From a virus (lineage: Duplodnaviria > Caudoviricetes), in IMG/VR virus record IMGVR_UViG_3300048576_000466, positions 1 to 27,263 of that record: a stretch of DNA of 27,263 nucleotides. One strand, given 5' to 3'. Below the pieces are notes generated by a model. The model saw only the letters and a program-made list of their open reading frames with translations, was not told where the DNA came from and did not search any database. Of this stretch, positions 155 through 27,095 are shown piece after piece; the stretch's first letter is position 1; each line of letters opens with the position of its first letter. The position numbers and the translations under genes were made by a program.

Positions 155-973
155 ATGCCCGCCAAAACCCCAATAATACCACGTCCCACACTGTCAACAG
201 GCGACGACGCAACCGCCGCAAAGGAACTCCTTAAGCGCTACAACGACGCACAAGACGGTATGCGTCGCATCGTTGCCCTGGGCTTGATGGCCTGGGAGAT
301 TAAGGAGACCCGACTCAAGCATGGTGAGTTCGGCTATTGGCTCCAGGCAAATGCACCACAATTGTGTTGCCAGGACGCGGCAACCAAAACCCCAAAGGCT
401 AGCTCCTCATTGGCGAGCTATATGCAACTCACCAAGGGAGTTTTGGAGTCCACGGGATTAACGGTTGGGAAATACCTCGAAAAAGTCTGTAAACAAAATT
501 CCCAATCGTTGGGAATTTCGTTGACACTTGGCGGCCTGATTTTGGCATCCGATGCTCAGGTCCCAGAGCAACTCCGCAAGCTCCGTGACAAGATTTTTGA
601 GGTCGTCGATGGCAAGACGCCAAAGCAGTTAATGCTTGAGTTCAAGCAAGTTGAGGAGGATGGCCAGGGCGGATTGAAGGTCAAGCGCGGCCGCATGAAA
701 GGCCAGGGCGGCGCCAGCAAAGAGCAATGCGCCAATGCCAAGGCAACCGAAGCAATTGCCGAGGCCGCCGCCATCAATGCCAAGGCAACCGAAGCCCGCA
801 ACACCCTCCTGGACGTTGCCGACGACAAAACATGGGCAAGTCTCGATCCCAACGTCGCCAGCGAGCTCCTGGACGCCGCGCAAAGCCTGGTGGAGTTCCA
901 CCGCAACCGCCAAAGTCACATTGTTTCCGGACGCAATGCTGCCGCTGAAATCCTCAACCCCGTCGAAGAATGA
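155..973 (+). CDS. DUF3102-like phage protein
   Basis: The pattern 'LGLMAWEIKETRLKHGEFGYWL...YMQL' resembles DUF3102. The start at 155 is preferred over 20 because it directly follows the upstream stop. ATGA overlap with the next gene. Confidence 0.6.
   Translation: MPAKTPIIPRPTLSTGDDATAAKELLKRYNDAQDGMRRIVALGLMAWEIKETRLKHGEFGYWLQANAPQLCCQDAATKTPKASSSLASYMQLTKGVLESTGLTVGKYLEKVCKQNSQSLGISLTLGGLILASDAQVPEQLRKLRDKIFEVVDGKTPKQLMLEFKQVEEDGQGGLKVKRGRMKGQGGASKEQCANAKATEAIAEAAAINAKATEARNTLLDVADDKTWASLDPNVASELLDAAQSLVEFHRNRQSHIVSGRNAAAEILNPVEE
488..526. repeat. 39-bp imperfect palindrome, copy 1 of a dispersed 38-bp repeat
   Basis: TGTAAACAAAATTCCCAA-TCG-TTGGGAATTTCGTTGACA. Positions 489-526 match 20246-20283 at 35/38. 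Confidence 0.9.
733..795 (+). repeat. 21-bp intragenic direct repeat (NAKATEA twice)
   Basis: CAATGCCAAGGCAACCGAAGC at 733-753 and 775-795. Confidence 0.85.
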
Positions 974-1248
974 GCGAGCCAATCCATATTGACCTTGACA
1001 GAGAGTTGAAAGCGGTGGACCCGATTCTCCATTCGGCGATTAGACAGCTTGTCAATAAGTACCAGTCGAAACCCACTGAAATGATCATTGGTCTTTACGC
1101 TGCAAATGCGCAAAAGGAATTACCGCGCTTTGACAAGTCGCCGATTCCTCACGTGTGTGAGGAACTCCTGCAAATAGCTTTGTCAATCATCATGACAGCG
1201 CGCAACGTTGAAATCAAAAGCGCGACATTTATCCAGAGGGACCAATGA
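970..1248 (+). CDS. Hypothetical protein
   Basis: 92-aa ORF with ATGA overlaps at both ends. Confidence 0.75.
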   Translation: MSEPIHIDLDRELKAVDPILHSAIRQLVNKYQSKPTEMIIGLYAANAQKELPRFDKSPIPHVCEELLQIALSIIMTARNVEIKSATFIQRDQ

Positions 1249-3608
1249 ACTTCTCGCCCACCGGAGACAGCGTGCCGAACGCTGGAAACGCCATCAGTAG
1301 AATACAGGCCGGAGCCGGAGAGCCCCCAGCGCCGCGCGAATGCGGCTTGATTCCTGGAAGCGCCACCGCGATTAACGCGCCCCTGTCGCAAAGTCTGCTG
1401 CGCTCCGGTGTGCGAGCCTATTTGGAGACCCGCCGCCCCGATCCCAACCCCGAGAACGAACCCCAGTTATTTGACACGCTCCCCAAGCGCGTCAAAGCGG
1501 AAATCCGGGCGTTGCTCATGGCCTTCGCGTCCATCGATTGCATGACCGATCGCCGCCGGACCGGCCGCATCTCCGTGGACGCGGCCTGTAAAGTGGTGTC
1601 GAAGAAATTCCGCCCCGATTGGAACTGGTCCCCCAAGCGTTTAAACGCCCGTTACAGCGCGTTTGTCCGCGCCAGGGACTGGACAGTTCTGGTCAATTGC
1701 TCCAAGGCCGGGGCGGCCTGGCAGGACTCACGCCGGGGCCTTCCCATGGAGTTTCTGCAATATTGTTGCGACGTGATTTTCGCGTACAAGCGCGATGATG
1801 CCCGGAAGGAAGCATTGCACTCAATCAAGCGCAACTGGATGACCGGCCGCAACGCCGCCGGGGAACCCAATGAAATCCCGGGGTTCGGCTTCCGGCGCGA
1901 TTGGATCCGCCGCAATGATCCTTCTATCGACTTCCCAACCGGATGGACCTACAGCAACATTTTACGGCAGATCAAAAAGCACAATATCCTGCCTCGCGCC
2001 GTCCATCTCTTGACACTTCAGGGAACCAATGCCGCCCGCAAAGTCCTGCCTCAGGTCAATGCCACCCGCAGCGACCTCCGGTTCATGGAATGGGTCGAGT
2101 TTGACGACGTGAAAGTGGACTGGCGCGTTATTGACACGGTGACCGGAAGTGTGGTGGACCTCTGGATTCTCATTGCCCGGGACCGCGCAACGAGTGTGTT
2201 ACTCGGGTTCGTCATGCGTCCCGCTCTGGTACGCGAGGATGGCTCCCAGACGCATTTACGGTTGGAGGACATGAAGCAATTGTGCGGCTGGGTCTTGGAG
2301 CACTACGGTTTGCCGCCCTACCTCATGACCTGGCTCCTGGAGAACGGGACCGCAACGCTGGGTCAGGGTGTCCGCGCCGCGCTCAAGGAGCTCTTGCAAG
2401 GGCGACTGGAGATTCGCTATTCGTCCATGGTCGGCGGCGTGTCCCCGTCCGGATTCCGCGAGAAAAAAATCGGCAACTCCATGGGCAAAGCCTCACTGGA
2501 AAGTCACAATCGCCCAATCCACATTATCAGCAGCAACATCCCCGGTCAGACCGGACCACTTTACAACGTCCGCCCGGCCGATCTTCAGGCCCGCGAAGCC
2601 GAGGCCATCCGCACGTGGAAGCTCGGCCAGGAGATTCTCCCGCCGCATCTGCGCAACGATTTGGGCTATGCATTATTGACAGTCGATCAAGCCCGCGCAG
2701 CGCTCATGCAGGTTTTCGCGATACAGAACAACAATACGGATCACCGCAAGGAGGGATTCGAGAAAATCGGCGAATGGTTCGATCCCGCCCGCGGCTTGTG
2801 GCTTCCGGCGCGCACGGCTCCGGCCGTCATGCCCGCGGGCTCCTCAGTCCGAGCCCGAATGCAGACCCCGCTGGAACGCGCCGCGCAGCTCGTGACGGGA
2901 CTCTCCTGGACTCCCGTTTCCCCGGAGATTATCGCCGCGTTCTATGAGCACACGCAGCGCGTGGTTCACGTCGAGGAGAATGGCGAAATTGTATTCCGTC
3001 ACAACGGCAAGGACTTGATTTTCACGTCGCAATGCAACCCCGGTCAGAAGCTTGTGGCGTATCTGCATTCGGACGATCCGCAATTCCTGCACTTGACAGA
3101 TGGGGCCGGTCGATTCTTCCCGTCGGCCGTGCTGAAGTCGCGCATCAAAGTGGGCGACCAGGACGCCCTGGCCAAGGCCATCGAGTTCAGTCAATCCGCG
3201 CTCAAAGCCGCACGTCAACGCGCCGAGGAACTGGCCGCTCCAGAGCGCAAGGCGCTGGAGGCTATGCGCGCCCACAATGCCGCGCTTTTGGGCGAGTTCA
3301 TGCCCACAGTCGCCGCTCCGGAGGCCAGCCGCCCAATGGCTCAATCCGGTGTTGCAGCCGGTCTGAAGGCCATCCAGGAGCAACGCAAGGCCGAATCCCG
3401 CGCCACTGCCGCGCAAGCGGCTGAGGATCGCGCCGCCATCGCCCGCTCCGGCCGCGCCGCATCGCGGGACATCCTGGCATCGGCCGCGCCGGTCGATCCC
3501 CGTCCCGCACCCTCAGCCATCGCCGAAATGTTCGGCGCACCCGAACCTGAAGCGGAGTCAAAACCCGCATCCAATTTCCTGTCAACAATCTCCAATCACG
3601 GAGACTGA
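1245..3608 (+). CDS. Mu-like DDE transposase (MuA-type)
   Basis: 787 aa, with candidate catalytic segments WVEFDD, WLLENGT and GKASLESHN. It lies directly upstream of an AAA ATPase. Confidence 0.88.
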   Translation: MNFSPTGDSVPNAGNAISRIQAGAGEPPAPRECGLIPGSATAINAPLSQSLLRSGVRAYLETRRPDPNPENEPQLFDTLPKRVKAEIRALLMAFASIDCMTDRRRTGRISVDAACKVVSKKFRPDWNWSPKRLNARYSAFVRARDWTVLVNCSKAGAAWQDSRRGLPMEFLQYCCDVIFAYKRDDARKEALHSIKRNWMTGRNAAGEPNEIPGFGFRRDWIRRNDPSIDFPTGWTYSNILRQIKKHNILPRAVHLLTLQGTNAARKVLPQVNATRSDLRFMEWVEFDDVKVDWRVIDTVTGSVVDLWILIARDRATSVLLGFVMRPALVREDGSQTHLRLEDMKQLCGWVLEHYGLPPYLMTWLLENGTATLGQGVRAALKELLQGRLEIRYSSMVGGVSPSGFREKKIGNSMGKASLESHNRPIHIISSNIPGQTGPLYNVRPADLQAREAEAIRTWKLGQEILPPHLRNDLGYALLTVDQARAALMQVFAIQNNNTDHRKEGFEKIGEWFDPARGLWLPARTAPAVMPAGSSVRARMQTPLERAAQLVTGLSWTPVSPEIIAAFYEHTQRVVHVEENGEIVFRHNGKDLIFTSQCNPGQKLVAYLHSDDPQFLHLTDGAGRFFPSAVLKSRIKVGDQDALAKAIEFSQSALKAARQRAEELAAPERKALEAMRAHNAALLGEFMPTVAAPEASRPMAQSGVAAGLKAIQEQRKAESRATAAQAAEDRAAIARSGRAASRDILASAAPVDPRPAPSAIAEMFGAPEPEAESKPASNFLSTISNHGD

Positions 3609-3635
3609 CAGGCTCAAAACAACGAAAGGCAACAA

Positions 3636-4745
3636 ATGGATACCATCATTGATCCCACAATCCCCCCCGCCGTGCATGAGCACGCGGATCCCAATCACGC
3701 GAATGCCCAGGCGGCCATGACCGCTGCGGCCTCGCGAATCCCCGGCGACACAGTCAATAAAGCGACCGCCGACTTGCCGGACAACCAGCGCAGCGCCATC
3801 CGCCGCCTGCACGCGCTCTATACCGAGGAAAATCTCTCCCTGGACGAGCTCGCGAAGATGGTCCGGCTTTCCACCGCAACCATCAGCCTCGTGTTTCGGG
3901 GGAAATACAACGCGAAACTGGATGACATCTGTCAAGTGATTGATGAATTTTTCATCCTGAAGGAACGCCGCGCCGGAAGCAAAAAGCTCCCGTTCATCGC
4001 CACGTCCCTATCGGAAAAAATCGGCAATGTATGCGCGGCCGCAAACGAATTTCAGAAGATCGCCTTCATTTTTGGTGACTACCAAATCGGCAAGTCCGAG
4101 GCGCTCCTGGAATACCAACGCACGCACAATCACGGCAACACGATCTATGTGTCCATGCCGACTGGCGGGGCGCTCTGCAATCTCATTGTGGAGATGGGCG
4201 AGGCGCTTCGAATCTCCGCAACGATTTGCGAAAAAGTCTTGCGTCGCCGAATCATGTCCGCGATTGACGATCGGATGTTGCTGATTATTGACGAAGCGCA
4301 TCGCGCCATTCCCGACAGCAGCAACGCCCGCGGCACCAGCAAAATCCAGAGCATCGAATTCATTCGCGAGATTTATGACAAATGCCGTTGTGGCGTCGTC
4401 ATTTGCGCCACAAACGTTTTTCGGGACGAAATGGACCACGGAGCCATGAGCAAGCTTCTGGGGCAATCCAAGCGCCGCCGCTTGTGCGCCTTGCAGTTGC
4501 CGAATCGCGTCCCCCGTGAGGATTTGGATCGCTTCGCCGCGGCCTACGGGCTCCCGCCATCCGCCGGCAAGTATCGGGACCTGGAGAAGCGGATCATTGA
4601 GGACGAAGCCCTGGGCTTCTGGCTGACACTCTTGCGCATGGCCGGGAAGATAGCAGGCCAACGCAAACAAAAGCTCACCTGGGACCACGTCAGCGAAGCG
4701 CACGCGGGTTTGTTGGACCTCGAGACAATGGGGGACAAACGATGA
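3636..4745 (+). CDS. MuB-like transposition AAA+ ATPase with N-terminal HTH
   Basis: HTH-like 'LSLDELAKMVRLSTATISLVFRGKY', Walker A GDYQIGKS and Walker B LLIIDEAH. Confidence 0.92.
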   Translation: MDTIIDPTIPPAVHEHADPNHANAQAAMTAAASRIPGDTVNKATADLPDNQRSAIRRLHALYTEENLSLDELAKMVRLSTATISLVFRGKYNAKLDDICQVIDEFFILKERRAGSKKLPFIATSLSEKIGNVCAAANEFQKIAFIFGDYQIGKSEALLEYQRTHNHGNTIYVSMPTGGALCNLIVEMGEALRISATICEKVLRRRIMSAIDDRMLLIIDEAHRAIPDSSNARGTSKIQSIEFIREIYDKCRCGVVICATNVFRDEMDHGAMSKLLGQSKRRRLCALQLPNRVPREDLDRFAAAYGLPPSAGKYRDLEKRIIEDEALGFWLTLLRMAGKIAGQRKQKLTWDHVSEAHAGLLDLETMGDKR

Positions 4746-4975
4746 AATTCAAAATCCCAACAGCCTATCGGATCCGCCTGGGAACGACGCAATTTTGCCT
4801 CAAGGTCAATTGGGGCCGAGGCCGCGCTTACGCCGTGGCCTGCTGGCCGGATGATGCCACTGAATTTGACGATCCCGTCGGTGCCAATCAGGCGCTGGAT
4901 GAATGTGTCAATAAATTGACTTATGCAAATGCCGTCATTGAGCCCGTCGAAGGGAGCGGAATTATCATCAAATGA
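4742..4975 (+). CDS. Hypothetical protein
   Basis: 77 aa, ATGA-coupled on both sides. Confidence 0.7.
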   Translation: MKFKIPTAYRIRLGTTQFCLKVNWGRGRAYAVACWPDDATEFDDPVGANQALDECVNKLTYANAVIEPVEGSGIIIK

Positions 4976-5154
4976 ACACAGACCCGCAATTCATCGACGG
5001 ACTTCAGACCGGAGTCGTAATCACCGTTGGCATCGTCTGTGCCGGAGTTGCATTGACGCTCACCTGGATTGCTCTGACGCGCTTCCTGGCAATGGGCGAA
5101 TCTGACGATGACCCGCCACAAGAGAATCGATGCAACAACAGTCAAGAGAAGTAG
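4972..5154 (+). CDS. Small single-pass membrane protein
   Basis: Hydrophobic stretch GVVITVGIVCAGVALTLTWIAL. The start is coupled to the upstream stop. Confidence 0.65.
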   Translation: MNTDPQFIDGLQTGVVITVGIVCAGVALTLTWIALTRFLAMGESDDDPPQENRCNNSQEK

Positions 5155-5168
5155 TACGAAATTATTTT

Positions 5169-5684
5169 ATGTCCACACTCAACGAAATCCAACAAGCAAC
5201 CAAACTCTATTCCGATGCCCGCGCCAAATTATCCGGCCTGGTCACGGAATTAACCCGCGAAATCGAAGCGCTCAAGCGTGCCAGACTTGCGGAAATCAAA
5301 GCGGCCGTAGCCCATGCCAGGGAGCGCGAATCCGCGCTGAATGCCATGGTCCAGCAAAGCCCGAGTCTTTTCATTCGACCGCGCACCGTGGTATTCCACG
5401 GCGTCAAGATTGGCTTTGCCAAGGGTATCGGAGTCCTGGAATGGGACAATCCCGATAACGTCATCAAGCTGATCCGCAAGAAGCTCCCGGAGCTTGCGGA
5501 CACCTTGATCAACATCAGGGAAACCCCGGTGAAGAAAGCCATCGAATGCCTGACAGCCGATCAGATCAAGAGCATCGGTTGTCGCATTACAAATTCTGGC
5601 GACCGCGTCATCATCAAGTCCACTGATAGCGATGTTGACAAACTGGTCACCGCGCTCCTAGAAGAAAAGGAGGTGGAGGAATGA
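5169..5684 (+). CDS. gam: Gam-like host-nuclease inhibitor (DNA end protection)
   Basis: Coiled-coil N-terminus followed by 'PRTVVFHGVKIGFAKG...LINIRETPVKKAI'. Size and position after MuB fit Mu Gam. Confidence 0.7.
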   Translation: MSTLNEIQQATKLYSDARAKLSGLVTELTREIEALKRARLAEIKAAVAHARERESALNAMVQQSPSLFIRPRTVVFHGVKIGFAKGIGVLEWDNPDNVIKLIRKKLPELADTLINIRETPVKKAIECLTADQIKSIGCRITNSGDRVIIKSTDSDVDKLVTALLEEKEVEE

Positions 5685-5971
5685 CAACACTCAAGAGCCC
5701 ATTCCCGCCGATTGTCTGCCCGTGCTGCAAGGTTCGTCCGGCATCAGAGCCACGATTCCCAGGTTCGAATTTCTGGGACTACTATTGCGTGACTTGCGGC
5801 GATGCCAGTCGATTGATTCACACGTCCGTCGATGATGCCCGCCAGTCAATCCGCAAAGCCTCACAAGCCGTTGCAGTCCGGGCATTGGAATTGTGCCCGA
5901 AGAATCATCTCACCCGCCGCAAATTAATTAAGGCGCGGCTTAATAAACTGGCAAAAGAGGTGCATCAATGA
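5681..5971 (+). CDS. Zinc-ribbon protein (Lar-like Cys spacing)
   Basis: CPCC...CVTC Cys pairs. Coupled start and stop. Confidence 0.6.
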   Translation: MTTLKSPFPPIVCPCCKVRPASEPRFPGSNFWDYYCVTCGDASRLIHTSVDDARQSIRKASQAVAVRALELCPKNHLTRRKLIKARLNKLAKEVHQ

Positions 5972-6792
5972 TCACAATCCCCGAAGCCAAGCAACGCTTG
6001 GAAGTCTCATTCAATGAGGACTTGCAAATCCTGATCCGCGCCGAACAAATTTGTTTGCGCATTGAGAATCACATTACCGTGCCTGACAAAGATTTCAGGC
6101 CGGTATTTCATTCTGGTCCCCAAATTACTCCCGCGCCGGCGGCTCCCGCTGCGCCTACGGTTCCAACGGCAATGGAAGTCCCAAAGCCTGATACGCGCAA
6201 TTGTCGTGAGCCAAAGCCTGGTGCATTACGGGAGCGCATTCTGGAGCTCCTGCATCAGCGTTCCCCTCAGTCAATGAATGAGCTTTGCGCGACTCTGAAT
6301 ATTGCCACGCCGCAAGACCGGAAGAAACTGAATGACACCCTTGGCAACCTGTCACGCACAAGTGACAGCAAGTGCGTGAGATTGGGAGGCGCATGGAAAA
6401 AAAATCCGCAATTCGCGCTTCGCACGGAATCGACCACGCCGACGGAATCTGCCAAACCGGCTCCAGTTTTCATTCCCCAGGAGCGCGTCGGCAAGTTTGC
6501 CGAGTTGGTTCTGGCCGCAATTCCGGAGGGCTCATTCACCATCCCCGAAATGGAGAAGCACGGATTGGCCATGTTCGGCAACAAATGGAAGCGCTTCTCC
6601 GGCGAAGGCAAGCTTGCGGCGATATTGTTGACAATGTCAGAGAAGGGAGTCCTGACCCGGAGCCGGAACGAAAATGGCGTCGTCTATTGCCGGGGCGTCT
6701 ATTACAAGGCGCCGATCCCCGCCGAGTCGGCCATCCCGCAAACCGTATCCGTACCGCGGGATCCCGATGCTGGCCAGCAATCGGAGGATTGA
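5968..6792 (+). CDS. Hypothetical protein, probable winged-helix domains
   Basis: 'LRERILELLHQRSPQSMNELCATL' is wHTH-like, with Pro/Ala linkers. GAGG Shine-Dalgarno and ATGA overlap. Confidence 0.65.
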   Translation: MITIPEAKQRLEVSFNEDLQILIRAEQICLRIENHITVPDKDFRPVFHSGPQITPAPAAPAAPTVPTAMEVPKPDTRNCREPKPGALRERILELLHQRSPQSMNELCATLNIATPQDRKKLNDTLGNLSRTSDSKCVRLGGAWKKNPQFALRTESTTPTESAKPAPVFIPQERVGKFAELVLAAIPEGSFTIPEMEKHGLAMFGNKWKRFSGEGKLAAILLTMSEKGVLTRSRNENGVVYCRGVYYKAPIPAESAIPQTVSVPRDPDAGQQSED

Positions 6793-6795
6793 TCC

Positions 6796-7811: not shown

Positions 7812-7813
7812 TT

Positions 7814-8098
7814 ATGCCGTATTTGCTTGAGCTTGATTCGGGGAGTTACATTTTGCCGGAAGATGAAAATATTAACTCCCTGCTGAAGACCCTGAAAAAA
7901 GCAAAGCGGGTCCGCTGGGATTACGGCGTGCGGGAGGTGAGAGGCAAGCGATTCTACCGCATCGATGACGATATTCCTCACACTATTCAAGTCTCTATTA
8001 TTGACAAGAGTCAGATTTTGGAACCCAAAAAACCGAAGCAAATCGCGCAAAAAGTCAGCCCGGATTGCAACGGCGAAATGTTCCCTGAAGGAGATTGA
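7814..8098 (+). CDS. Hypothetical protein
   Basis: ATG 2 nt after the upstream stop (MPYLLELDSG...). Confidence 0.7.
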   Translation: MPYLLELDSGSYILPEDENINSLLKTLKKAKRVRWDYGVREVRGKRFYRIDDDIPHTIQVSIIDKSQILEPKKPKQIAQKVSPDCNGEMFPEGD

Positions 8099-8100
8099 TC

Positions 8101-8496: not shown

Positions 8497-8502
8497 ACAC
8501 AC

Positions 8503-8787: not shown

Positions 8788-8788
8788 G

Positions 8789-8812
8789 AAAGCCCCGCCG
8801 AAGCGGGGCTTT
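8789..8812. terminator. Intrinsic terminator, probably bidirectional
   Basis: AAAGCCCCGC-CGAA-GCGGGGCTTT between convergent operons. Confidence 0.8.
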
Positions 8813-8893
8813 GTGTTGCGCGGAAATTTTTTACCAACGATTTTTTAAAGTTTCAACGGGGCCGCGCAACACCCATAGACTACCTCTATCGTC

Positions 8894-10584: not shown

Positions 10585-10758
10585 GCGAAAAATGAAAAAA
10601 AGTGAAAATATTTTTTGGGGCTTTGAAAATCAACGGGTTGCACACTCCGTCAGCATCATATTCTAGGGGCGCAACAATAGCATACTTGAGCATCACCTTG
10701 CTTTTCCATGCGATTCTCCTTCTGCTGCATTGCCGGTATATACTTTGAACAGGTATTT

Positions 10759-12855: not shown

Positions 12856-13401
12856 ATGAAGGACCGCCCATCAAAGCTGGATGCATTCGCCGAGCAACTT
12901 GAACAATGGTTCGAGCTGGAGCACATGACGCTTGCGGAAGCGGGGGCGCGGCTTCATGACGCGGGTTGCGATGTCTCGCTTTCGCGTCTGTCAAAGTGGT
13001 GGATGCGTCGCCAGGGCGAATTAATCCAGGATCGAATCCTGGAGCGGATTGCCACCGGCGCTCAGCAATGCCAGGAGGTAGAGAAGCAACTGGCTGAGAC
13101 TCCGGCCCCGGAGTTGGACACGCTGATCAAGTTGCATCGCGTGTTGATCTTTCGTCTCTCGACGGAAGCGAATGCCAATCCTGAGCTCCTGGAGCTCGTA
13201 GATCGGCTTATGAAGCCCGTCCTGGGATATTACAAGCTTGAGGACAAACGACGCGAAACCAGCCTTGCAGAGCGCAAATATCGCGATGCTGTGGCGGAGA
13301 AGAAGGCAGTCATTGAGCGTGAATTGGAGCGTGCGAAGACAACCGGCGGTATCAGTGCGGAAACCTTAACCAAGATCGAGGCGGAACTGAAATTGTTGTG
13401 A
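12856..13401 (+). CDS. Mu gp27/DUF3486-like protein (putative terminase small subunit)
   Basis: 'RPSKLDAF...VSLSRLSKW' N-terminus and 'GISAETLTKIEAEL' C-terminus. Overlaps the terL start. Confidence 0.75.
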   Translation: MKDRPSKLDAFAEQLEQWFELEHMTLAEAGARLHDAGCDVSLSRLSKWWMRRQGELIQDRILERIATGAQQCQEVEKQLAETPAPELDTLIKLHRVLIFRLSTEANANPELLELVDRLMKPVLGYYKLEDKRRETSLAERKYRDAVAEKKAVIERELERAKTTGGISAETLTKIEAELKLL

Positions 13402-14720
13402 AGCTCGGCGACGAAACATATTTTCTCCCCTATCAGCGGGAATGGATTCTTGACACGTCCAAAATGAGGATCGTCGAGAAGTCCCGCCAGATTGGGTTGA
13501 GTTACGCCGATTCTTACGACTCTGTGCGCAAGGCTGCAATCACCGGCGGCAAGGATGTCTGGGTCATGTCCCGCGATGAGGTTCAGGCAAAGCAGTATAT
13601 ACTATACTGCAAGCGCTGGGCCATGATTATGAAGTATGCGGCCGAGGATTTGGGCGAGCAGGTCCTGAGCATCGATGGCGGCAAGTCCATCTCAGTGCAA
13701 GTGCTCAAGTTCGCGTCCGGCGCCTGTATTTATGCCCTGACCTCGAACCCGGACGCAATCGTCGGCAAGACGGGTCATGTCAAGCTGGATGAGTTCGCCA
13801 TCCACAAGGATCAGCGGGATCTGTATAAGTATGCGAAACCGGTCATTCAGTGGGGTGGCACTCTGTCAATCATTTCGACGCATCGCGGGATTGGGACGGT
13901 CTTCAACCAGATCATCCAGGACATCAAGCATCGTGGCAATCCGATGGGCTGGTCATTGCATACCATCCCCGTCCAAAAAGCCGTTGAGGACGGCATTGTG
14001 GAGCGAATCAATGCCGTTACCGGAGGACACGAGTCCCGTGAAGCCTGGTTGGCGCGTCAACGCGCCGAATGTTTGGACGAGGAGCAATGGCTCCAGGAGT
14101 ATTGCTGCCAGCCCGCCGACGAGGCCAGCGCATTCATCACTTATGACCTGCTTCAGGCGTGCGCGGCGGATGCGCCGCTTTTGACTCTGGATGACCTTGC
14201 GAAGTGTGAGGGGTCTTTGTATGCGGGCGTGGATATTGGACGCCGTACAGACCTGTTTGTGCTCGATGTCGGCGAACTCCTGGGGGATGTCATGCATGAC
14301 CGGTATCGGTTGGAACTCAAGGGAAAGACTTTTGCCGAAATGAATTTCGAGCTCGAAAGAGTGTTGCGTCTGCCCCGCTTGCGCCGGATGTGCATGGATG
14401 CAACCGGACTGGGGATGCAACTGGCCGAGGAGGCGCGCACGAAGTTTGGCGCAAAAGTTGAACCGGTCACCTTCACCGCGTCTGTCAAGGAGAGCCTGGC
14501 TTATCCGCTCAAGCAGGCATTCGAGGATCGCAAGTTGCGCATCACTCGGGATGACAAGCTTTGGGCGGACATTCACGGCATCCGCAAGGAGACAACCAGT
14601 GCTGGCAATATTCGTTTTGCCGGGGACGCTGAGGATAGTCACTGCGACCGGTTCTGGTCCCTGGCATTGCGACAACATGCCGCCACCCGCAAATCTCAAT
14701 TTGGTTCGTACCTTATTTGA
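13398..14720 (+). CDS. terL: Terminase large subunit (Mu gp28-like)
   Basis: FLPYQREW, EKSRQIGLS, LDEFA, IISTH, AGVDIGR, MDATGLG and HCDRFWSLAL motifs. Confidence 0.95.
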   Translation: MKLGDETYFLPYQREWILDTSKMRIVEKSRQIGLSYADSYDSVRKAAITGGKDVWVMSRDEVQAKQYILYCKRWAMIMKYAAEDLGEQVLSIDGGKSISVQVLKFASGACIYALTSNPDAIVGKTGHVKLDEFAIHKDQRDLYKYAKPVIQWGGTLSIISTHRGIGTVFNQIIQDIKHRGNPMGWSLHTIPVQKAVEDGIVERINAVTGGHESREAWLARQRAECLDEEQWLQEYCCQPADEASAFITYDLLQACAADAPLLTLDDLAKCEGSLYAGVDIGRRTDLFVLDVGELLGDVMHDRYRLELKGKTFAEMNFELERVLRLPRLRRMCMDATGLGMQLAEEARTKFGAKVEPVTFTASVKESLAYPLKQAFEDRKLRITRDDKLWADIHGIRKETTSAGNIRFAGDAEDSHCDRFWSLALRQHAATRKSQFGSYLI

Positions 14721-14726
14721 CAGATA

Positions 14727-15593
14727 TTGTTGACAGTGAAAACAAATGCGAAAAAAACACTTGGTTCCTTGTTCGCCGGCATCGGCGGGTTCGATCTTGG
14801 GTTCGAGCGCGCCGGATGGGAAACAAAATGGCAGGTCGAACTCAACCCCGTCAATCGGGCTGTCCTTGCCGATCGATTTCCGACCTCGAAACGGTTCGAG
14901 GACGTCCGCCAATGCGGCGCGAAAAATCTCGAACACGTCGATTGCATCACCGCCGGATTCCCGTGCCAGGACATCAGCACCGCCGGGCGCTGCAAACTTG
15001 ACAAGGATTCCCACGGCCTTAACGGAGCGCGGTCCGGTCTCTTTTTCGAGGCCCTGCGCATCGCCCGGGAAGTACAACCCACTTGGCTGGTGCTTGAGAA
15101 TGTCGCGGCCCTGCTCGCTAGCAATGATTGCGAGGACATTGAGCGAGTCGTCACTGGCCTTGCCGAGTGCGGGTATCTGGGATTCTTCCGGGTGCTTAAT
15201 GCTCAACATTTCGGAGTCCCCCAGGCACGCCGTCGAATTTTCCTGGTTGCGGGTCTTGGACGTTACCCCGCATTTGACTACCTGGCTGATGCTGCGGCAA
15301 TGGAGTCAATACCTTGCTCGCTTGAGCCGTTCGAAGTCGCACGCGACCCGAATTCCTTCGTTGACCATACTCTATGTGCGACAAATGCCGCGTGTCAAAT
15401 TGGTCTGGGGCACGAAGTTCTCGTCGCTCACGCGGACGGATGGAGTCAGATGGTTGAGCGGGAACGAGAGATTAGCCTACATGGGATTCCCTCGGGACTG
15501 GATGAGCTCAACCTTGCGGAGGCTTACGCGGCAGGGAATGCCGTTGTCCCGGCGGTAGCCCAGTGGATCGCCGAAAAACTCGCGAAATCATGA
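14727..15593 (+). CDS. DNA (cytosine-5) methyltransferase
   Basis: Motifs I FAGIGG, IV GFPCQD, VI ENV, VIII QARRRIF and X GNAV. The start codon is uncertain. Confidence 0.93.
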   Translation: MLTVKTNAKKTLGSLFAGIGGFDLGFERAGWETKWQVELNPVNRAVLADRFPTSKRFEDVRQCGAKNLEHVDCITAGFPCQDISTAGRCKLDKDSHGLNGARSGLFFEALRIAREVQPTWLVLENVAALLASNDCEDIERVVTGLAECGYLGFFRVLNAQHFGVPQARRRIFLVAGLGRYPAFDYLADAAAMESIPCSLEPFEVARDPNSFVDHTLCATNAACQIGLGHEVLVAHADGWSQMVEREREISLHGIPSGLDELNLAEAYAAGNAVVPAVAQWIAEKLAKS

Positions 15594-15710: not shown

Positions 15711-15761
15711 TTGTGTGTTTTGTCTGGAACGGCTCTAAAACAAAAATTGGAGGGATCGCAA

Positions 15762-17984
15762 ATGTCTAAATCCTTTCCAGGTGCCTCATTGGCTAGTCAG
15801 GGGCTTTCACTTCCCCCGATTCGCGCCCCATTTAGTAATATGGTGCAGAAGGACGGGGAGACCACGAATGGAGTCCCCGCATTCTGGTTTGCCCGCGCCA
15901 TTGAGACGGGCTCCCAGGAGGCTTTATACGAGCCGTATAAGGATTCTCCATGGGTTCAGCGGGCAATCAAGAAAATTTCCGGCCCGATCAGCGCCGTCGA
16001 GGTTGAGTTCCTCTCCTCAGCCACTTCTCCCGTTCGGCGCGGTCGAGGCCGTTCACTTTACACGGTTCGCGGACTTCGCGCCGACGCTCAAGAGGTGGAC
16101 TTGCCGCAAGTGCGTGCCTGGCTTCGTGAGCCGATGCGCGGCATGACCTGGTCCGATTTCGTCGAGGCGTCGATCGGCTGGCTCAAGCTCCAGGAGTGCT
16201 TCTGGATTTTGAGCGACGAAATGCTGGTCCCGTTCCCGGAGGCCAGCAAGCGGCCGTTGCCGCCCATTATCATTGCGCGGCCGGATCGGATGCGTCATGT
16301 AGTGGAGAATGGAGAGTTGACCGGTTGGAGCTATACAGACGCTTCGGGCAAGTCCTGGGCGCTGTTACCGGACCAGGTGATTCAGTTGCGGTTCTGGAAT
16401 CCCTATGATCCATTCCGCGGCCTGGGAGAGTATTACAGCGCTCGAATCGCGGCCGAGTCGGACTGGCTCGCGGGCAAGTTCACCCGCAACCTGATGAGCA
16501 ACAATGGGGACACGGGACCGTACATCGTCGCGAAGAATGGCATCCCGACCGATGGCCAGCGCGAGCAGATATTGACAGACTTGCGCGCCAAGCGCGCCGC
16601 ACAGTTGCGCGGGAATTTCCAGCCAATATTTTTGACTGGCGATGTCTCGATTGAGGATCCCCAGATTCGTTCGGTCGATGCCGCATTCCTGGGGAACCGG
16701 TTGGAGAATCGTCATGAGATTGCCATGGCATTTGGTGTCCCCCCGTCGATGTTCGATGTCAAGGCGGCCTATTCCATCGGCTCGGCATCAGATTATTTCC
16801 AGCTCATTATGGACACGTGCATTCCGGCCGGCAACAAGCTTTGTTCCGCGCTGGAGGTGTTGATCCAGCGGGCAACGGGCAAGATGGTTAAGGTGGCCTT
16901 GAATTGGGATGAACACCCGGTCATGCAAGAAGTGCGCAAGGAACGGCTCGCTTCTGTTGACACGTTGGCGAATCGGGGAATGCCGATCCATGACATCAGT
17001 GATTACCTGGGGTTGGGCTTGCCGCGATTTGATGGCGATGACATTGGCTACTTGCCGATGGGTGTGGCTCCGGTGTCCGATATGACCGAACCCGCGCCGG
17101 AGCCGACCACGTCCCTGGATTACTCTGAGACGGTACCGGACGGTGATGAAGCGGATCCAGCGGAAGACATCAAGAAAGCTTTCCAATTGCGCGCCACTCG
17201 CTCGCCAAACGCGAAGTTGTGGGAATCCCACATGCGACGCCGGGCACCATTCGTGAGACTCTACGAGCGAAAATTCAGCAAGGCTTTGATGGCGCTGCGT
17301 GTGGAAGTCCTTCGCAAGCTGGCAAAGCTGGGTGAGAGTCTGGGACGCAGCGTGCAATGCCGCGCTCCCATTACTGACATATTATTTGACAAGCTTTCGT
17401 TCGGTGAAGTCCTGCAAGCGGCTTTCAAACCCGTCGCAGAAGCGGCGATGGCAAACGGGGCATCGCAACTCCTGGAGGAAATCGGCGCGGATAATCCCTG
17501 GACGATGCCGCAAGCCGAGGTGCTTCAGTTTGTCAAGTCGCGTGAGAACCGAATCTCCGGCATCTCGGATTCGGTCTGGGACAAGCTCAAGGGCTCCCTA
17601 GAATCGGGGTTTGAAGCGGGCAAGAACACGAACGAGATTGCGGATGATTTGCGCGCCGAATTCAACGCGTTGTCAAAGTATGAAGCCCGGCGCATCGCAA
17701 TGACGGAAACCGGAGCCGCATTCAATTTCTCCCGTGACGCCGCAATGCGCGGCGCGGGCGTCCAGTACAAAAAATGGCTCAGTAGTCACGGACCCAATGT
17801 CCGACCTGCCCATGAGGCCGCTGAGGCCGCTTACGCGGCAAATCCCATCCCCATTACCGAGCCGTTCATTGTCGGCGGGGAAGAACTCATGTTCCCCGGC
17901 GATGAAAATGGATCCGCCGGGAATGTCATCAACTGCGAGTGCATCAGCCTGGCTGTTGCCCCACCGAAAAAACCAAAGGAATAA
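15762..17984 (+). CDS. HK97-type portal protein fused to a Mu gpF/SPP1 gp7-like minor head domain
   Basis: Portal-like 'RPDRM...DQVIQLRFWNPYDPFRGLG...EIAMAFGVPPSM'. C-terminal 'ARRIAMTET...KKWL...VRPAH...FPGD...NVINCEC'. GGAGG precedes ATG 15762. Confidence 0.85.
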   Translation: MSKSFPGASLASQGLSLPPIRAPFSNMVQKDGETTNGVPAFWFARAIETGSQEALYEPYKDSPWVQRAIKKISGPISAVEVEFLSSATSPVRRGRGRSLYTVRGLRADAQEVDLPQVRAWLREPMRGMTWSDFVEASIGWLKLQECFWILSDEMLVPFPEASKRPLPPIIIARPDRMRHVVENGELTGWSYTDASGKSWALLPDQVIQLRFWNPYDPFRGLGEYYSARIAAESDWLAGKFTRNLMSNNGDTGPYIVAKNGIPTDGQREQILTDLRAKRAAQLRGNFQPIFLTGDVSIEDPQIRSVDAAFLGNRLENRHEIAMAFGVPPSMFDVKAAYSIGSASDYFQLIMDTCIPAGNKLCSALEVLIQRATGKMVKVALNWDEHPVMQEVRKERLASVDTLANRGMPIHDISDYLGLGLPRFDGDDIGYLPMGVAPVSDMTEPAPEPTTSLDYSETVPDGDEADPAEDIKKAFQLRATRSPNAKLWESHMRRRAPFVRLYERKFSKALMALRVEVLRKLAKLGESLGRSVQCRAPITDILFDKLSFGEVLQAAFKPVAEAAMANGASQLLEEIGADNPWTMPQAEVLQFVKSRENRISGISDSVWDKLKGSLESGFEAGKNTNEIADDLRAEFNALSKYEARRIAMTETGAAFNFSRDAAMRGAGVQYKKWLSSHGPNVRPAHEAAEAAYAANPIPITEPFIVGGEELMFPGDENGSAGNVINCECISLAVAPPKKPKE

Positions 17985-18198: not shown

Positions 18199-18206
18199 CA
18201 AACCCT

Positions 18207-18896: not shown

Positions 18897-18899
18897 CTT

Positions 18900-20249: not shown

Positions 20250-20283
20250 ACAAAATTCCCAATCGTTGGAAATTTTATTGACA
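20246..20283. repeat. Copy 2 of the 38-bp palindromic element
   Basis: GTAAACAAAATTCCCAATCGTTGGAAATTTTATTGACA, overlapping the capsid TAA. Confidence 0.9.
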
Positions 20284-20303
20284 TAAAATCAACTCAAAAT
20301 CGT

Positions 20304-20978: not shown

Positions 20979-21032
20979 ACCCATAAATTACCGGCCATTC
21001 CGGGAGGTGACTAACCGGGATGGTCTCAAAAA

Positions 21033-22213: not shown

Positions 22214-22965
22214 CCAGCAATGATATTATTGACAAGTTGCCCGGCGAATTGAAAGCCATCCTGGAATCGGATGCCTACTTCATTGACATTCCAGTTATTG
22301 TCTATGAGGACCAAAATCTCGGATCGGCCGTAGAGCGGCTTGATGCGGTGATGACCACGAAGAACGGCAAGCGCGGGATCGCCGTCCTGGTGCTGCAAAT
22401 GGAAGCGGATGACGATTACCCGGAGGTTGTGTTTGGCCCGATGACGATGCGTCCGGCAATCCAGGTGCTGGAGAATTTGCAACTCAATCGCGGCGCCGGT
22501 GGCACGATGAAAACGGCACGCAGTGTGGCGCGTCGGATTCGGGACCTGGTGAAGTCCTGCTCGCTGGTTGGCCTTGCAAGCGACTTTTCCCCGGACACCC
22601 CATGCATACAGCCCGTGGCACTTGACAAGTCTCTGGCCTACGTCCGGGCGCTCCAGGTGGGCTTTGTGTGCGAGGAGGCGGACTTCGCGGGACCGAACCA
22701 GGTGGACACGCCGGAGTTTGCCGATGCGGGTGAGGTAACCCCGAAAATCGCCATCACTTGTGGCACTGCGGGTGCCACGATTTACTACACCACCGACGAC
22801 TCTTTTCCTGAGCCGCCGGCGGTCAACCCAAAAACAACCTCCCGTATTTTTACGGGGTCTATTGTCATTCCCCAGGCGGGAATGACCTTGCGAGCGCGCG
22901 CCTACGCTCCGGGCCAGATCGCAAGTCGAGTTAATCGGGGCAAAATCTCCTACACAACCAACTAA
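22210..22965 (+). CDS. Tail terminator-like protein with C-terminal Fn3-associated (CHB_HEX_C-like) domain
   Basis: Position before the major tail gene. C-terminal 'TPEF...ITCGTAGATIYYTTDDSFP...TLRARAY'. Confidence 0.65.
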   Translation: MTSNDIIDKLPGELKAILESDAYFIDIPVIVYEDQNLGSAVERLDAVMTTKNGKRGIAVLVLQMEADDDYPEVVFGPMTMRPAIQVLENLQLNRGAGGTMKTARSVARRIRDLVKSCSLVGLASDFSPDTPCIQPVALDKSLAYVRALQVGFVCEEADFAGPNQVDTPEFADAGEVTPKIAITCGTAGATIYYTTDDSFPEPPAVNPKTTSRIFTGSIVIPQAGMTLRARAYAPGQIASRVNRGKISYTTN

Positions 22966-22968
22966 TTT

Positions 22969-23925: not shown

Positions 23926-23942
23926 TATATATTGGCATTTTT

Positions 23943-24131
23943 ATGCAAAACGAAATCAAACAAATCGATGCGTTGATTGAGTCCTTGACAACCACTGTTG
24001 ACGACTCCAACGGAACACGGCCGCACTTGAGAAGCGCCCTGGGCGCGCTCACGCTGGCCAGGGAACAACTGGAAGCGGACGCCGCGTATGAAGCGGCGGC
24101 CGCAAAACAAACGACCTCACAAGCCAAGTGA
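23943..24131 (+). CDS. Small helical hypothetical protein
   Basis: MQNEIKQIDALIESL..., with a GTGA overlap to the next gene. Confidence 0.6.
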   Translation: MQNEIKQIDALIESLTTTVDDSNGTRPHLRSALGALTLAREQLEADAAYEAAAAKQTTSQAK

Positions 24132-24517
24132 AGATCGTCCTCGGAGCAACTACTCTGGCCGACATTACCGCGACGCCGCGTTCATTCGCGACGTTCGCGG
24201 CAATGGGGCTGGAAGGCGACATCCAGGAGGAGAAGCTGTACGAGGCCGCTGCCGAATGGATCAAGCCTCGTGGCAATGTCAATGGATTGGTGACTTTCTC
24301 GGTTGCCTGCTCTTATGCCACCGTGGACGCGGCCATTGACGCGCTCAAGGCGCATTTGGCTCTAGTGAATACGCAAGCAAGCCTCGTGATCACCCCACGC
24401 CCTGGCGGCCATTCTCTGACGTTTGCGGGGGCAATTGTCAAGAGTGTGGAACGCGAGGAATGGGGTGGAGTCCGCATTAAAGTCCGCTTTAACGTCCGTG
24501 TAACCACTCTCGCATGA
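24128..24517 (+). CDS. Hypothetical tail-region protein
   Basis: 129 aa, coupled at both ends. Confidence 0.7.
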   Translation: MKIVLGATTLADITATPRSFATFAAMGLEGDIQEEKLYEAAAEWIKPRGNVNGLVTFSVACSYATVDAAIDALKAHLALVNTQASLVITPRPGGHSLTFAGAIVKSVEREEWGGVRIKVRFNVRVTTLA

Positions 24518-25377
24518 AGATATTTTCCGCTCTGATTCTCGCCTTGGTTCTTTTGATTCCCGGGGCTAATGCCACAACCTCAGTCCGTTTCGGGCTCCGA
24601 TACTTTACAGGTTCGAGCCTGTCCAGGACAATCAACCTGGTCCCAAATAACCCTGTCATCACGGATGCTACGAATTTCTGGACCGGTGGAAGCATCTCGA
24701 TCCCGACGACGAATGGCGAGGCCATGGCAACCCTGGAGGCCAATGACTATACCATGTCACTAGAGGGATTGTCTGATAGCTGGTTGCTCCAAGTCTATGA
24801 GACGAATGGGACCGTGAATGCGGCCGCGCTTTGTCCCAGCATTCCGATGACTACCTATAGTGGATTGGATTTGACGGCGTTGATTGCCACGTTCAATTCA
24901 TTTGCAGCGCAAACGAACGTGGACGCCTCTCTGGCCGCGCTTTCGAACGCGGTGATTGCGGTCATAGCGACCGCAAGTAATAATGCCGTGGCAACGGCCG
25001 TAAGCACAAGCACGGTCAACCTGAATCAAGCCCTGACATCGTATGCAACGGTGACCTCTCTGCTTAGCGCTTACGGAGCCTCTGTCAATTACGCGAACAC
25101 AAACGTGACGATGGCGACAGTCCTGGGATGGGCATTGGGACCAACCTTGGAAATGTCCACTTCGCCCTACACCAATGGCACGGTTCAGGCCGTCTCTGTA
25201 ACCTGGCCGGATGGTGTCAGCGGGGTGTTTACGCCGACCCTGGATACCACATGGGGAGCCATCAATGGCTACAGCATCACCCGAGGTCGTTACACGTTCA
25301 CGCAACCAATTTTCGCCCGGGACGAAAATGGAAACCCAATCAACATTCCCGCAATGACCATCACAACCAACAATTGA
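24514..25377 (+). CDS. Signal-peptide-bearing Thr/Asn-rich protein
   Basis: MKIFSALILALVLLIPGANA-TT has a typical Sec signal with an AxA site. ATGA-coupled. Confidence 0.8.
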   Translation: MKIFSALILALVLLIPGANATTSVRFGLRYFTGSSLSRTINLVPNNPVITDATNFWTGGSISIPTTNGEAMATLEANDYTMSLEGLSDSWLLQVYETNGTVNAAALCPSIPMTTYSGLDLTALIATFNSFAAQTNVDASLAALSNAVIAVIATASNNAVATAVSTSTVNLNQALTSYATVTSLLSAYGASVNYANTNVTMATVLGWALGPTLEMSTSPYTNGTVQAVSVTWPDGVSGVFTPTLDTTWGAINGYSITRGRYTFTQPIFARDENGNPINIPAMTITTNN

Positions 25378-25382
25378 CTCTT

Positions 25383-27074
25383 ATGCGTCTCACCCTGATT
25401 CTTGCCCTGATTGCCGCAACAAATGTTCACGCCGGCATTCTCGATGTCCCGCCCGTGCCACGCGGGACGATTACAAACATTGCTGTGTCAATTTCGACCA
25501 ATTATTATGCACTTGCGACAAACGCTGCTGCAATCACAGCAAGCAACATCGCAGCAAAAAGTGTTACGTCATCATTGGTGTCAAGCAATACATACCAGAC
25601 CACTACGAATTTGACCGCATTCAACATGAATTCGTGGATTGTGAATTCAAATGGGGTGTGGTCGATGTGCATTTCCAATGTAGATGCTTCTCACACTTTT
25701 GGGCTTTATTGGGACTCAAGTTACGCTTACTCGGCCTACTTTGACTTTTGGATGAGGAGTGATTTTACGAATAGCCAATTCCGAATATTTGACAATTCGG
25801 CAGTAAGATACTCGTCGTATTATTCACTTCAAACAAATTGGACGCACTACACGATTATTTTGCCTTCTATCTCTGCCGGGAGAATGTGGTTCTTTTATCA
25901 AACTAACTATGCCCAATCAACCTACGAAACAAATTTCACCCTTGGGCAGGTGTTGTTGCAATACAGCAATTTTAACGTTCTGGTTTATGAGTCACACTCC
26001 ACGATAGCAATTTCAAATGCTGTCTACTTGTCGAATATTTTCCCACGCGTCGTAATGCCTACTAATATATACTGCGCGGTTGGAGACACAAATCAGATAT
26101 TTGTAAGGGGGGTGATTGAAGATCAAAATCCGTATCGGATGCCGTATGGTTTTGTTTCTTCGGTCGGAAACTCCTATCCTCGTTACTGGGAGTATATACC
26201 GACAAACTCAGAAACGAACACACTGACAATGTGGGTTTATGACATGGCCACGAATGTCGTCGCATCCAACACATGCAACGTAATTGCGTTAACAACGAAC
26301 TCTATTCCCAGCACCAACATTTATGTTGCCTGTATCGGAGACTCTCTAACTTTTGTCGGTGTTTGGCCGCAAGAACTCTATCGGCGATTGTCCCAGACTG
26401 GGGGTTCTCCAGCCGGGTGTGGTCGGACAAATTTTGTGTTTGTGGGGGAGACGAACATGGTTGACTATCCGACGCAGAAATTTACGGGAAAAAGCGGATG
26501 GCGAATCAGCGACTTTTACACGCTGACGAATTCGCCATTTCGAACCAACGGGAGTTTTTCGTTTGCGGCTTGGGCCTCGTCGAATAGTGTTCCCAGAATT
26601 GACATTGCGCTGGTTCTTCTGGGATGGAATGGAATCGAAGACGGCGCCAGTGGCACAAATCACACGATTTGGACAAATCAAATGGGCATTTTATTGACTC
26701 AACTGCATACTGATTTTCCGAGTTGTCGCGTGATTTTACTCGGGGTTGAAACACCGTCCACTTGTGGTGGATTGGGCCATGACTACGCATCGAGTGGGTT
26801 TTGGACTTATTATCCACTCCTGAGAAAAGTAAATGGGCTTAGATTAGCTGAACAGACTTTTGCTTTGACAGCGCCATTTTCAACGTACTGCATTTATGCA
26901 GATGTTGCGGCTCAATTTGATGCTGAAAATAACATGATGATGACCGCAACTCCGGTGAATATTCGTTCATCGACAACTGAGCTGCGAGGATTCAACGGTA
27001 TTCATCCTACCTCTGTCGGATATTTGCAAATTGCCGATACAGCATTCAGGGCGATGTTGCGTTTGTGGCAGTAA
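25383..27074 (+). CDS. Signal-peptide-bearing SGNH/GDSL hydrolase (esterase) protein
   Basis: MRLTLILALIAATNVHA-G signal. SGNH blocks IGDSLT, GKSGW, LGWN and NGIHP. ATG 25383 follows the upstream stop by 5 nt. Confidence 0.82.
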   Translation: MRLTLILALIAATNVHAGILDVPPVPRGTITNIAVSISTNYYALATNAAAITASNIAAKSVTSSLVSSNTYQTTTNLTAFNMNSWIVNSNGVWSMCISNVDASHTFGLYWDSSYAYSAYFDFWMRSDFTNSQFRIFDNSAVRYSSYYSLQTNWTHYTIILPSISAGRMWFFYQTNYAQSTYETNFTLGQVLLQYSNFNVLVYESHSTIAISNAVYLSNIFPRVVMPTNIYCAVGDTNQIFVRGVIEDQNPYRMPYGFVSSVGNSYPRYWEYIPTNSETNTLTMWVYDMATNVVASNTCNVIALTTNSIPSTNIYVACIGDSLTFVGVWPQELYRRLSQTGGSPAGCGRTNFVFVGETNMVDYPTQKFTGKSGWRISDFYTLTNSPFRTNGSFSFAAWASSNSVPRIDIALVLLGWNGIEDGASGTNHTIWTNQMGILLTQLHTDFPSCRVILLGVETPSTCGGLGHDYASSGFWTYYPLLRKVNGLRLAEQTFALTAPFSTYCIYADVAAQFDAENNMMMTATPVNIRSSTTELRGFNGIHPTSVGYLQIADTAFRAMLRLWQ

Positions 27075-27095
27075 ACAATTGACAGAGTAATCGAT

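Follow-up and report, generated by a model that had tools for sequence, protein, structure and literature searches.

The window analysed here is the whole of IMG/VR virus record IMGVR_UViG_3300048576_000466, a 27,263-base stretch from a Mu-like phage, as judged by profile matches to phrog and Pfam models; the Mu-like gene set also includes a protease. Dispersed through these genes is the hexamer TTGACA, or TGTCAA when read on the other strand, a word identical to the -35 consensus of sigma70 promoters. TTGACA is the core of a graded site of 11 to 12 bases, in which five A/T-rich bases precede the hexamer and a G follows it, and the trait is restricted, within the genomes sampled, to one family of Verrucomicrobiota. 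From this point on, genomes of that family are referred to by number (G339, G121 and so on), and those carrying the trait as hosts. The sites and the genes of the window are as follows.

192 to 27084, both strands (45 plus, 29 minus): 74 dispersed TTGACA/TGTCAA sites, core of the graded site (five A/T-rich bases before TTGACA, G or A after it)
6623 to 6634, plus strand: full-match extended site TATTGTTGACAA, in the open reading frame (ORF) at 5968-6792
7996 to 8007, plus strand: full-match extended site TATTATTGACAA, in an early-region ORF; the same 12-mer is among the strong sites of host G339
14725 to 14736, plus strand: full-match extended site TATTGTTGACAG, at the terminase/methyltransferase junction, with a second site at 14717, 13 bp off
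22224 to 22235, plus strand: full-match extended site TATTATTGACAA, in a late gene
1245 to 3608, plus strand: Mu-like transposase (phrog_310, E 4e-14), for context
3636 to 4745, plus strand: MuB-like transposition ATPase (phrog_296, PF13401), for context
5130 to 5684, plus strand: Mu Gam-like end-protection protein (phrog_491, E 6e-15), which bears on the Chi alternative below
13398 to 14720, plus strand: terminase large subunit (phrog_2, PF17289), the bait for related phages
14727 to 15593, plus strand: C5 cytosine DNA methyltransferase (PF00145, E 5e-47, with a match to M.HhaI), between terminase and portal; the enrichment also occurs without this gene
15711 to 17984, plus strand: portal with head-morphogenesis domain (phrog_2662, PF04860), the basis of the phage tree
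18900 to 20249, plus strand: major capsid protein (phrog_10, PF05065), for context

A preliminary description of this DNA had claimed a window-wide enrichment of TTGACA/TGTCAA from a manual count of 45 plus 28 copies, 73 in all. The enrichment holds, as do the figure of 45 for TTGACA and all 39 example coordinates, which are found among the computed sites; TGTCAA actually occurs 29 times, for a total of 74 sites, or one per 368 bp. TTGACA is the top hexamer of the window under Markov models of order 0, 1 and 2 (74 observed against 10.3, 14.8 and 21.3 expected), while an order-4 model, which already holds the word's own 5-mers, expects 54.7. The enrichment also persists under synonymous-codon shuffling of 37 hand-picked window ORFs, where coding DNA carries 71 sites against an expected 16.4±3.6, about fourfold (z about 15, again the top hexamer), and the maximum in 300 shuffles is 26. 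Nearly all sites, 71 of 74, are intragenic, with 41 in sense and 30 in antisense orientation. That they fall in several codon frames and both orientations, as first described, is confirmed, since all five frames able to hold TTGACA are elevated: 17 observed to 3.8 expected in sense-0, 24 to 4.2 in sense-1, 4 to 1.2 in antisense-0, 13 to 3.0 in antisense-1, and 13 to 4.2 in antisense-2. To illustrate, tripeptides of the form [FILV]-D-[KNT] are coded as the TTGACA word in 17 of 23 cases, where 3.0 are expected. Codon choice in the window is under strong pressure toward TTGACA.

TTGACA also stands apart from its 18 one-mismatch neighbours in window coding DNA, only one of which, TTGTCA, is clearly up (41 against 13.6), with TTGACT mildly so (19 against 10.5). 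TTGTCA has 42 copies in the entire window, 24 of them overlapping a TTGACA. Several neighbours are depleted, namely TTGATA (1 against about 9.7-10.1), TCGACA (5 against 19.5) and TTAACA (1 against 5.6). Within the window, the sites are spaced more evenly than random (coefficient of variation 0.78, p=0.014).

The unit had first been taken to be the hexamer. The hexamer is enriched, but the true unit is longer, as TTGACA in a poor 5' flank shows no enrichment in hosts (222 observed, 211.6 expected). Host coding DNA has raised T at -5 and -3, A/T at -4 and -2, and G at +6 (z up to 11), and TTATTGACA is the top host 9-mer after a GC-rich repeat family (47 against 7.4). The observed/expected ratio depends on the 5' flank: in 947 kb of coding DNA from three hosts it is 6.1 for good flanks, 2.6 for middling and 1.05 for poor ones, and in 132 kb pooled from seven phage stretches the same classes give 10.3, 3.9 and 1.9. 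The window follows this gradient, its enrichment climbing with the flank match: for sites with zero to five of the flank features, observed and expected counts are 2 and 1.3, 7 and 4.1, 20 and 4.9, 27 and 3.6, 8 and 1.4, and 3 and 0.1. No flank gradient is seen in G414. The flank preference goes with the DNA word whichever way it is oriented, and it concerns one side only. Near-misses in a good flank are also up 1.7-3.2x when they are GTGACA, ATGACA, TTTACA, TTGACT or TTGACG; those with a change at T2, A4 or C5 exceed their poor-flank level slightly at most. TTTACA is about 2x enriched whatever the flank in G339, G121, G049 and G408, and 1.0x in G414; it may be a second word. The GC-rich repeated words GGACGCCTC and GGTAGGGAC, which head the 9-mer list of host samples L044-L083 and L138-L157, probably belong to REP-like elements.

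The family was picked out from a survey of 401 genomes of the order, in which TTGACA was compared with the reversed word ACAGTT. It comprises 31 genomes, 28 with TTGACA at 1.5-4.8x the reversed control and three (G412, G413 and G414) at 0.74-0.81. As a sole criterion this ratio was rejected, because ten high-ratio genomes outside the family have no clear coding enrichment (samples of 11-40 kb); a reversed-word hexamer ratio being unreliable on its own, the extended word WTWNTTGACAG was used instead. It occurs at 3.8-21x its reversed control in 25 of the 31 family genomes, and no genome among 389 others in the order passes this cut. Across the 401 genomes of the order, in a table read by eye with G313 counted only in the denominator, 11 have both at least 60 matches and a ratio of at least 3.8, and all 11 belong to the family; the best genome outside has 37 against 12. 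In a 301-genome sample of the phylum, G121 alone stood out, with 120 against 5.

Codon shuffling gives coding enrichments of 2.0x in G339 (493/249 in 647 kb of coding DNA), 2.7x in G121 (178/66) and 2.1x in G049 (66/31). TTGACA is reported to be usually avoided within bacterial genes (PMC1939733, citing Hahn et al.). G414 has 47 copies against 95.8, or 0.49x, and TTGACA is its most differential hexamer against three enriched genomes. G412, G413 and G414, which form one clade in a DnaA tree (support 100/100), are thus a nested clade that avoids TTGACA. In the G414 sample L218-L231, CTTGAC is strongly avoided (33 against 114) alongside TTGACA, and the palindromes GTGCAC, GTCGAC and CAGCTG are avoided by enriched genomes, much less so in G414. 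In one further sample, L105 (G335 C1:1-20000), 20 kb contain 218 copies of a repeat unit, which probably form a CRISPR array of great length.

Three lines of evidence point to a host in this family for the window phage. Against prophages in the family, window DNA gives matches at 64-69%; the window 5-mer signature, with the motif words removed, correlates at r 0.51-0.61 with five enriched genomes and at 0.36-0.47 with seven others; and the window portal clusters with the portal of a G339 prophage (support 86, unstarred). By these sequence resemblances, the phage likely infects a member of the family. Mu-like phages linked to the family exceed their hosts in TTGACA: seven pooled phage stretches (132 kb) carry 172 sites against 49, or 3.5x, where hosts reach 1.3-2.7x. 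The G339 prophage has 43 sites in 34.5 kb compared with 0.75/kb genome-wide (P=0.0013), and 39 against 13.3 in coding DNA. Prophage spans of G419 (6/1.6), G271 (9/1.7) and G298 (10/2.0) behave alike, and four prophage spans together have 55 against 12.6. A G414 prophage region has 4 against 11.8. The suggestion that the word is a host-wide trait adopted by the phage is therefore supported by enrichment across the host lineage, with phages above hosts. Equal enrichment in the host had been named as the mark of a host trait, and this applies in part: the likely hosts are enriched, but below the phages.

Enrichment is seen in 10 of the 52 rows of the portal tree, and three of the 10 have an identical portal sequence. 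Apart from L009, the enriched rows fall into two groups linked with family hosts, and the starred branches require at least three changes; these separate branches suggest that phages probably took up the trait more than once. L009, a phage of a distant portal branch, is mildly enriched (12 against about 6). No enrichment is seen in the remaining 42 rows of related phages. Relatives of the terminase occur in genomes titled Verrucomicrobiota, Pedosphaera sp. and Verrucomicrobia subdivision 3, and those, with most viral relatives, are not enriched. Since the enriched branches are scattered and the closest relatives of the window are not enriched, the trait follows the host rather than phage descent. 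At E<=1e-5, the window and the G339 prophage have in common only the transposase and head, packaging and tail proteins, and no small regulator; their transposases are 26% identical. Scans of viral contigs with the window transposase and head protease found no relatives. The G339 prophage has no C5 methyltransferase beside its portal; instead, its early region has a Dam-like gene (sequence look only). The earlier idea of a phage-encoded reader or modification is thus not supported, the enriched G339 prophage having neither a small regulator in common with the window nor a portal-side C5 methyltransferase.

The sites do not behave as paired operators. Among 1205 host sites in 1.43 Mb, no spacing is preferred for direct or inverted pairs up to 120 bp, which speaks against dimeric operators and terminator pairs, and tandem repeats at 11 bp number 0 pairs. 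Strand overdispersion is absent over 40 blocks of the 3.6-Mb G339 contig (chi2 39.7, 40 df), and site strand does not follow GC skew in G339 (rho -0.06), where the skew itself is weak. Strong sites on G339 C2 do run in one orientation (19 runs, about 27 expected, by a hand count made post hoc), and orientation switches on G374 C2 from 3+/9- to 8+/3- at a breakpoint chosen post hoc; the G374 GC-skew sample, 72 kb, is too small for defining replichores. Some polarity is therefore possible. Replichore GC skew is clear in G414 C1 and nearly absent along 3.6 Mb of G339 C2. Sites are uniformly placed along genes. Enrichment in G339 grows from 1.3x in genes of low GC at third codon positions (GC3) to 2.5x in high-GC3, typical genes, and less steeply in G121, from 2.25 to 2.84. 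Per-gene counts are Poisson (0.94, 773 genes), indicating no dependence on gene function. In 30 dnaA genes, 17 sites fall at eight positions, each common to at most three genomes, even where 29 share the peptide. Density is kept and position is not; the sites turn over freely.

The reading we favour, tentatively and at somewhat short of an even chance, is that the site serves as a protective self mark for some DNA-binding protein of the host and that phages mimic it; the steps from binding to protection are what we infer. An asymmetric, unpaired and apparently unpolarised site, whose flank positions contribute additively and which tolerates near-misses, resembles the footprint that a single protein head would leave on double-stranded DNA. 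Such a protein would recognise the extended site on double-stranded DNA as 'self' with a single reading head, probably helix-turn-helix or winged-helix, that would touch TGAC through the major groove and the A/T-rich flank through the minor groove. The turnover of sites, their blindness to gene function, their scarcity in atypical genes and their excess in phages are consistent with a mark that, through its local density, helps the DNA bearing it, above all DNA that has to get into the cell and replicate there. Density would thus count over position, the bound protein licensing the DNA around it, for instance by standing in the way of a translocating nuclease or a silencer. Incoming or transposing phage DNA would be checked every cycle, giving stronger selection in phages, and newly acquired DNA would be without the mark until ameliorated. 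A selected, dispersed DNA mark had already been proposed in the preliminary description, and the family-wide enrichment and graded flank support it. A bolder form of this reading, which we regard as possible but doubtful, is that the universal -35 word, elsewhere kept out of genes, has turned into the genome-wide passport of a self/non-self system in one family: motif presence, not methylation, would license DNA, and transposable phages would repeatedly forge the passport above host density.

Several points weigh against the self-mark reading. The host assignment rests on resemblance: no spacer or integrated copy links phage and host, and no CRISPR-spacer-like match was identified, short matches not having been followed up. 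The closest terminase and capsid relatives of the window (60-70% identity) are not enriched. The window is without the host's T at -5, and its even spacing recurs neither in the pool of the five other phage stretches (p=0.29) nor in host blocks (p=0.20). Six of the 31 family genomes lie below the 3.8 cut for the extended word, at 2.6, 2.0, 1.8, 1.4, 1.06 and 1.06, and two weak hosts, G408 (54/42) and G374 (29/21.9), reach 1.3x each. The contrast with G412-G414 is a single phylogenetic event, and the host coding statistics come from samples of 65-650 kb and a simple custom gene caller. The reader protein itself was not found, every candidate family tested failing to separate enriched from non-enriched genomes.

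The candidates can be listed briefly; C5 methyltransferases, Vsr, AddA/AddB, ComEA-like proteins, ComEC and PAPS-reductase were searched in five of the 31 family genomes. A DnaA-box variant was rejected because the DnaA domain IV signature motif is identical in 30 of 30 proteins, an extra RpoD paralogue because G412-G414 carry as many copies, and a change in RpoD region 4.2 because the helix does not differ between genomes with and without the enrichment. The AddB loops compared, which align with the region taken to read Chi in the B. subtilis protein, are the same in G339, G408, G419 and the non-enriched G414. HU/IHF proteins number two per genome in most of both groups, with G170 having ten matches to the family; ParB has one conserved copy in both groups, second matches being patchy. 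ComEC is in five of five genomes, G414 included. A ComEA-like protein with a double helix-hairpin-helix occurs in non-enriched G413 (L254) and G414 (L255), and was not seen in G339, G408 or G419. C5 methyltransferase and Vsr together are patchy, G339 being without a PF00145 match; N6/N4 methyltransferases are also patchy, at 1-17 per genome (two in G339), in a search that did not extend to Dam-like, type I and type IIG enzymes. Phosphorothioate genes fare no better, with two or three strong PAPS-reductase matches in each of four enriched genomes and an extra weak one in G414. The hunt covered the families just named, BREX and most regulator families not being among them. The addA- and addB-like genes are far apart in G339 (L238/L248) and G408 (L239/L247), and adjacent in G414 (L241/L246).

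Two alternatives survive best, and we consider each of them unlikely. One is an unusual Chi: AddAB would read the site on single-stranded DNA (e.g. as CTGTCAA with an A-rich 3' flank) and halt degradation, the DNA being then protected and repaired. AddA- and AddB-like genes are present, and the one-orientation runs on G339 C2 and the switch on G374 C2, both post hoc, would fit. There is precedent for a phage excess over the host, Chi being more over-represented in recombinase-less phages than in the host core (PMC3784561), as well as for a graded A/G-rich 3' flank (PMC5041463). The lack of strand overdispersion in the 40 G339 blocks and of correlation with GC skew, weak as that skew is, argues against Chi, as do the unchanged AddB loops and the phage's own Gam-like end protector.

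The other is biased DNA uptake or transfer followed by recombination, as with the H. influenzae uptake sequence (USS) or as proposed for HIP1. The USS has the same architecture, a short critical core with weaker T-rich flanks (PMC3458573), and HIP1 has been tied to transfer genes (PMC13756078). The lack of detected polarity, the fewer sites in atypical genes and the presence of ComEC are also consistent with uptake. An uptake drive, however, would not predict prophages exceeding their hosts; ComEC is also in G414, the ComEA-like protein was seen only in the non-enriched members of the five genomes, and inverted pairs are absent at any spacing up to 120 bp.

A third alternative, rather improbable in our view, is that a methyltransferase coupled to biased repair (Vsr-like, or a ratchet of the HIP1 type as modelled in PMC4390886) makes the word mutationally, phages gaining more of it through more replication cycles. 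Consistent with this, the C-to-T neighbours TTGATA and TTAACA are depleted in the window, and TTAACA is at 0/14.5 in G049, a genome with two C5 methyltransferase-Vsr pairs. Window coding DNA also has a Dcm/Vsr-type signature (CCWGG enriched, CTTGG depleted), with CCAGG at 140 against 68.6 and CTTGG at 41 against 78.6; neither G339 nor G121 has this signature. However, the genome in which the extended word is strongest, G339, lacks any PF00145 match and has two N6/N4 matches, the neighbours in G339 and G121 are no lower than the GATA/TTAA background, and near-miss variants in good flanks are enriched rather than depleted. Other words are avoided in window coding DNA, namely GAGATC (0/15), GCATGC (0/8.4), GATATC (0/7.1), CCTGCG (3/18.7) and CGCGCG (4/23.1), and this is likely restriction avoidance, one non-palindromic site included. 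The palindrome-like GTATATA(C) has eight copies over both strands against 0.4 expected (order 2), those on the plus strand at 10736, 13595, 18654 and 26192, mostly intragenic.

Half-promoters that bind sigma70 region 4 as decoys or sinks for RNA polymerase, an idea raised in the preliminary description, are quite improbable. The hexamer is the exact -35 consensus, and sigma probably does see the sites, since host coding sites with TANNNT at 16-18 bp number 6, where about 18 would be expected under general enrichment. In the window, though, one of 74 sites has a -10-like TANNNT 16-18 bp downstream (1.15 expected), and no fixed gap to gene starts exists, the gaps to annotated starts being 4, 10, 20, 34 and 40, with no peak at 13-16 (window, host sample and G339 prophage). 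Enriched and non-enriched genomes do not differ in the RpoD region-4.2 helix. Nine promoter-like intergenic sites are mostly without T at -5 (2/9 have it) and -3 (1/9), and the tolerance of change at T1, with hardly any at A4 and C5, is the opposite of the conservation usual in -35 elements.

A system of the phage itself, in which the transposase would bind the site to give genome immunity or a phage-encoded methyltransferase would act on it, is very improbable: density is highest in phages and the window is more evenly spaced than random, but host chromosomes carry the site throughout, the window and G339 prophage have divergent transposases, no common small regulator and no C5 methyltransferase on the G339 side, and closer phage relatives are not enriched. 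The least credible alternative is a by-product of codon-pair or amino-acid composition, for although codon shuffles do not preserve codon-pair bias and other A/T-rich hexamers reach about 1.9x in hosts, five frames on both strands are up, the flank is tied to the DNA word in both orientations, and 42 of 52 phage rows are not enriched.

Few dispersed chromosome marks are known (Chi, KOPS, uptake sequences and HIP1), each having led to a machine. In the literature searched, supplementary word tables and most subscription papers aside, TTGACA is not described as a dispersed mark. The copying of the mark by phages beyond the host level suggests a phage-host conflict, and the family offers a natural experiment, with 25 strongly marked genomes, graded strength and a nested avoiding clade. 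The word would also be usable as a host marker for uncultured phages of the family.

In comparison with these systems, the site resembles Chi (read by RecBCD or AddAB; E. coli GCTGGTGG) in being dispersed, non-palindromic, some 2-3x over-represented and flank-graded (PMC3784561, PMC5041463); for Chi, too, over-representation in some temperate phages exceeds that in the core genome of the host (PMC3784561). It differs from Chi in being A/T-rich rather than G-rich and in having no detected polarity, besides the unchanged AddB loops and the Gam-like protein of the phage. With the H. influenzae USS it shares lineage specificity, a short critical core plus a weaker T-rich flank, lack of polarity and lower frequency in atypical genes (PMC3458573). 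The TTGACA site is far weaker in enrichment than the USS, and its prophages are above the host. Inverted pairs forming terminators are a feature of uptake sequences, and the site has none; nor is there a ComEA-like match in the three enriched genomes examined. HIP1 and the alternative HIPs are likewise lineage-wide words in coding DNA, on both strands, with loss in sub-clades and a function still open (PMC4390886, PMC13756078). Unlike HIP1, the TTGACA site is non-palindromic (74 TTGACA against 42 TTGTCA) and graded rather than all-or-none, no tracking methyltransferase was found among the C5 and N6/N4 families, and the hexamer is enriched 2-4x compared with a reported 15-300x for HIP1 (PMC5861425).

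The -35 element of sigma70 promoters is the identical hexamer, but the TTGACA sites are intragenic, on both strands and without a -10 partner, differ in flank and substitution tolerance, and are enriched here where the word is usually avoided (PMC1939733). A DnaA-box variant differs in that DnaA domain IV is unchanged in enriched genomes. KOPS has a strong strand skew toward the terminus, and no such skew is found for TTGACA sites. The half-site of OmpR/PhoB-type winged-helix proteins is CTGTCA plus an A/T tract. On its opposite strand the TTGACA site reads CTGTCAA and then an A/T tract, so that core and minor-groove tract are arranged alike, although the site has no tandem repeats at 11 bp, exists in thousands of intragenic copies and has no regulator identified with it. 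The site thus behaves like the known dispersed marks, yet fails a defining test of each.

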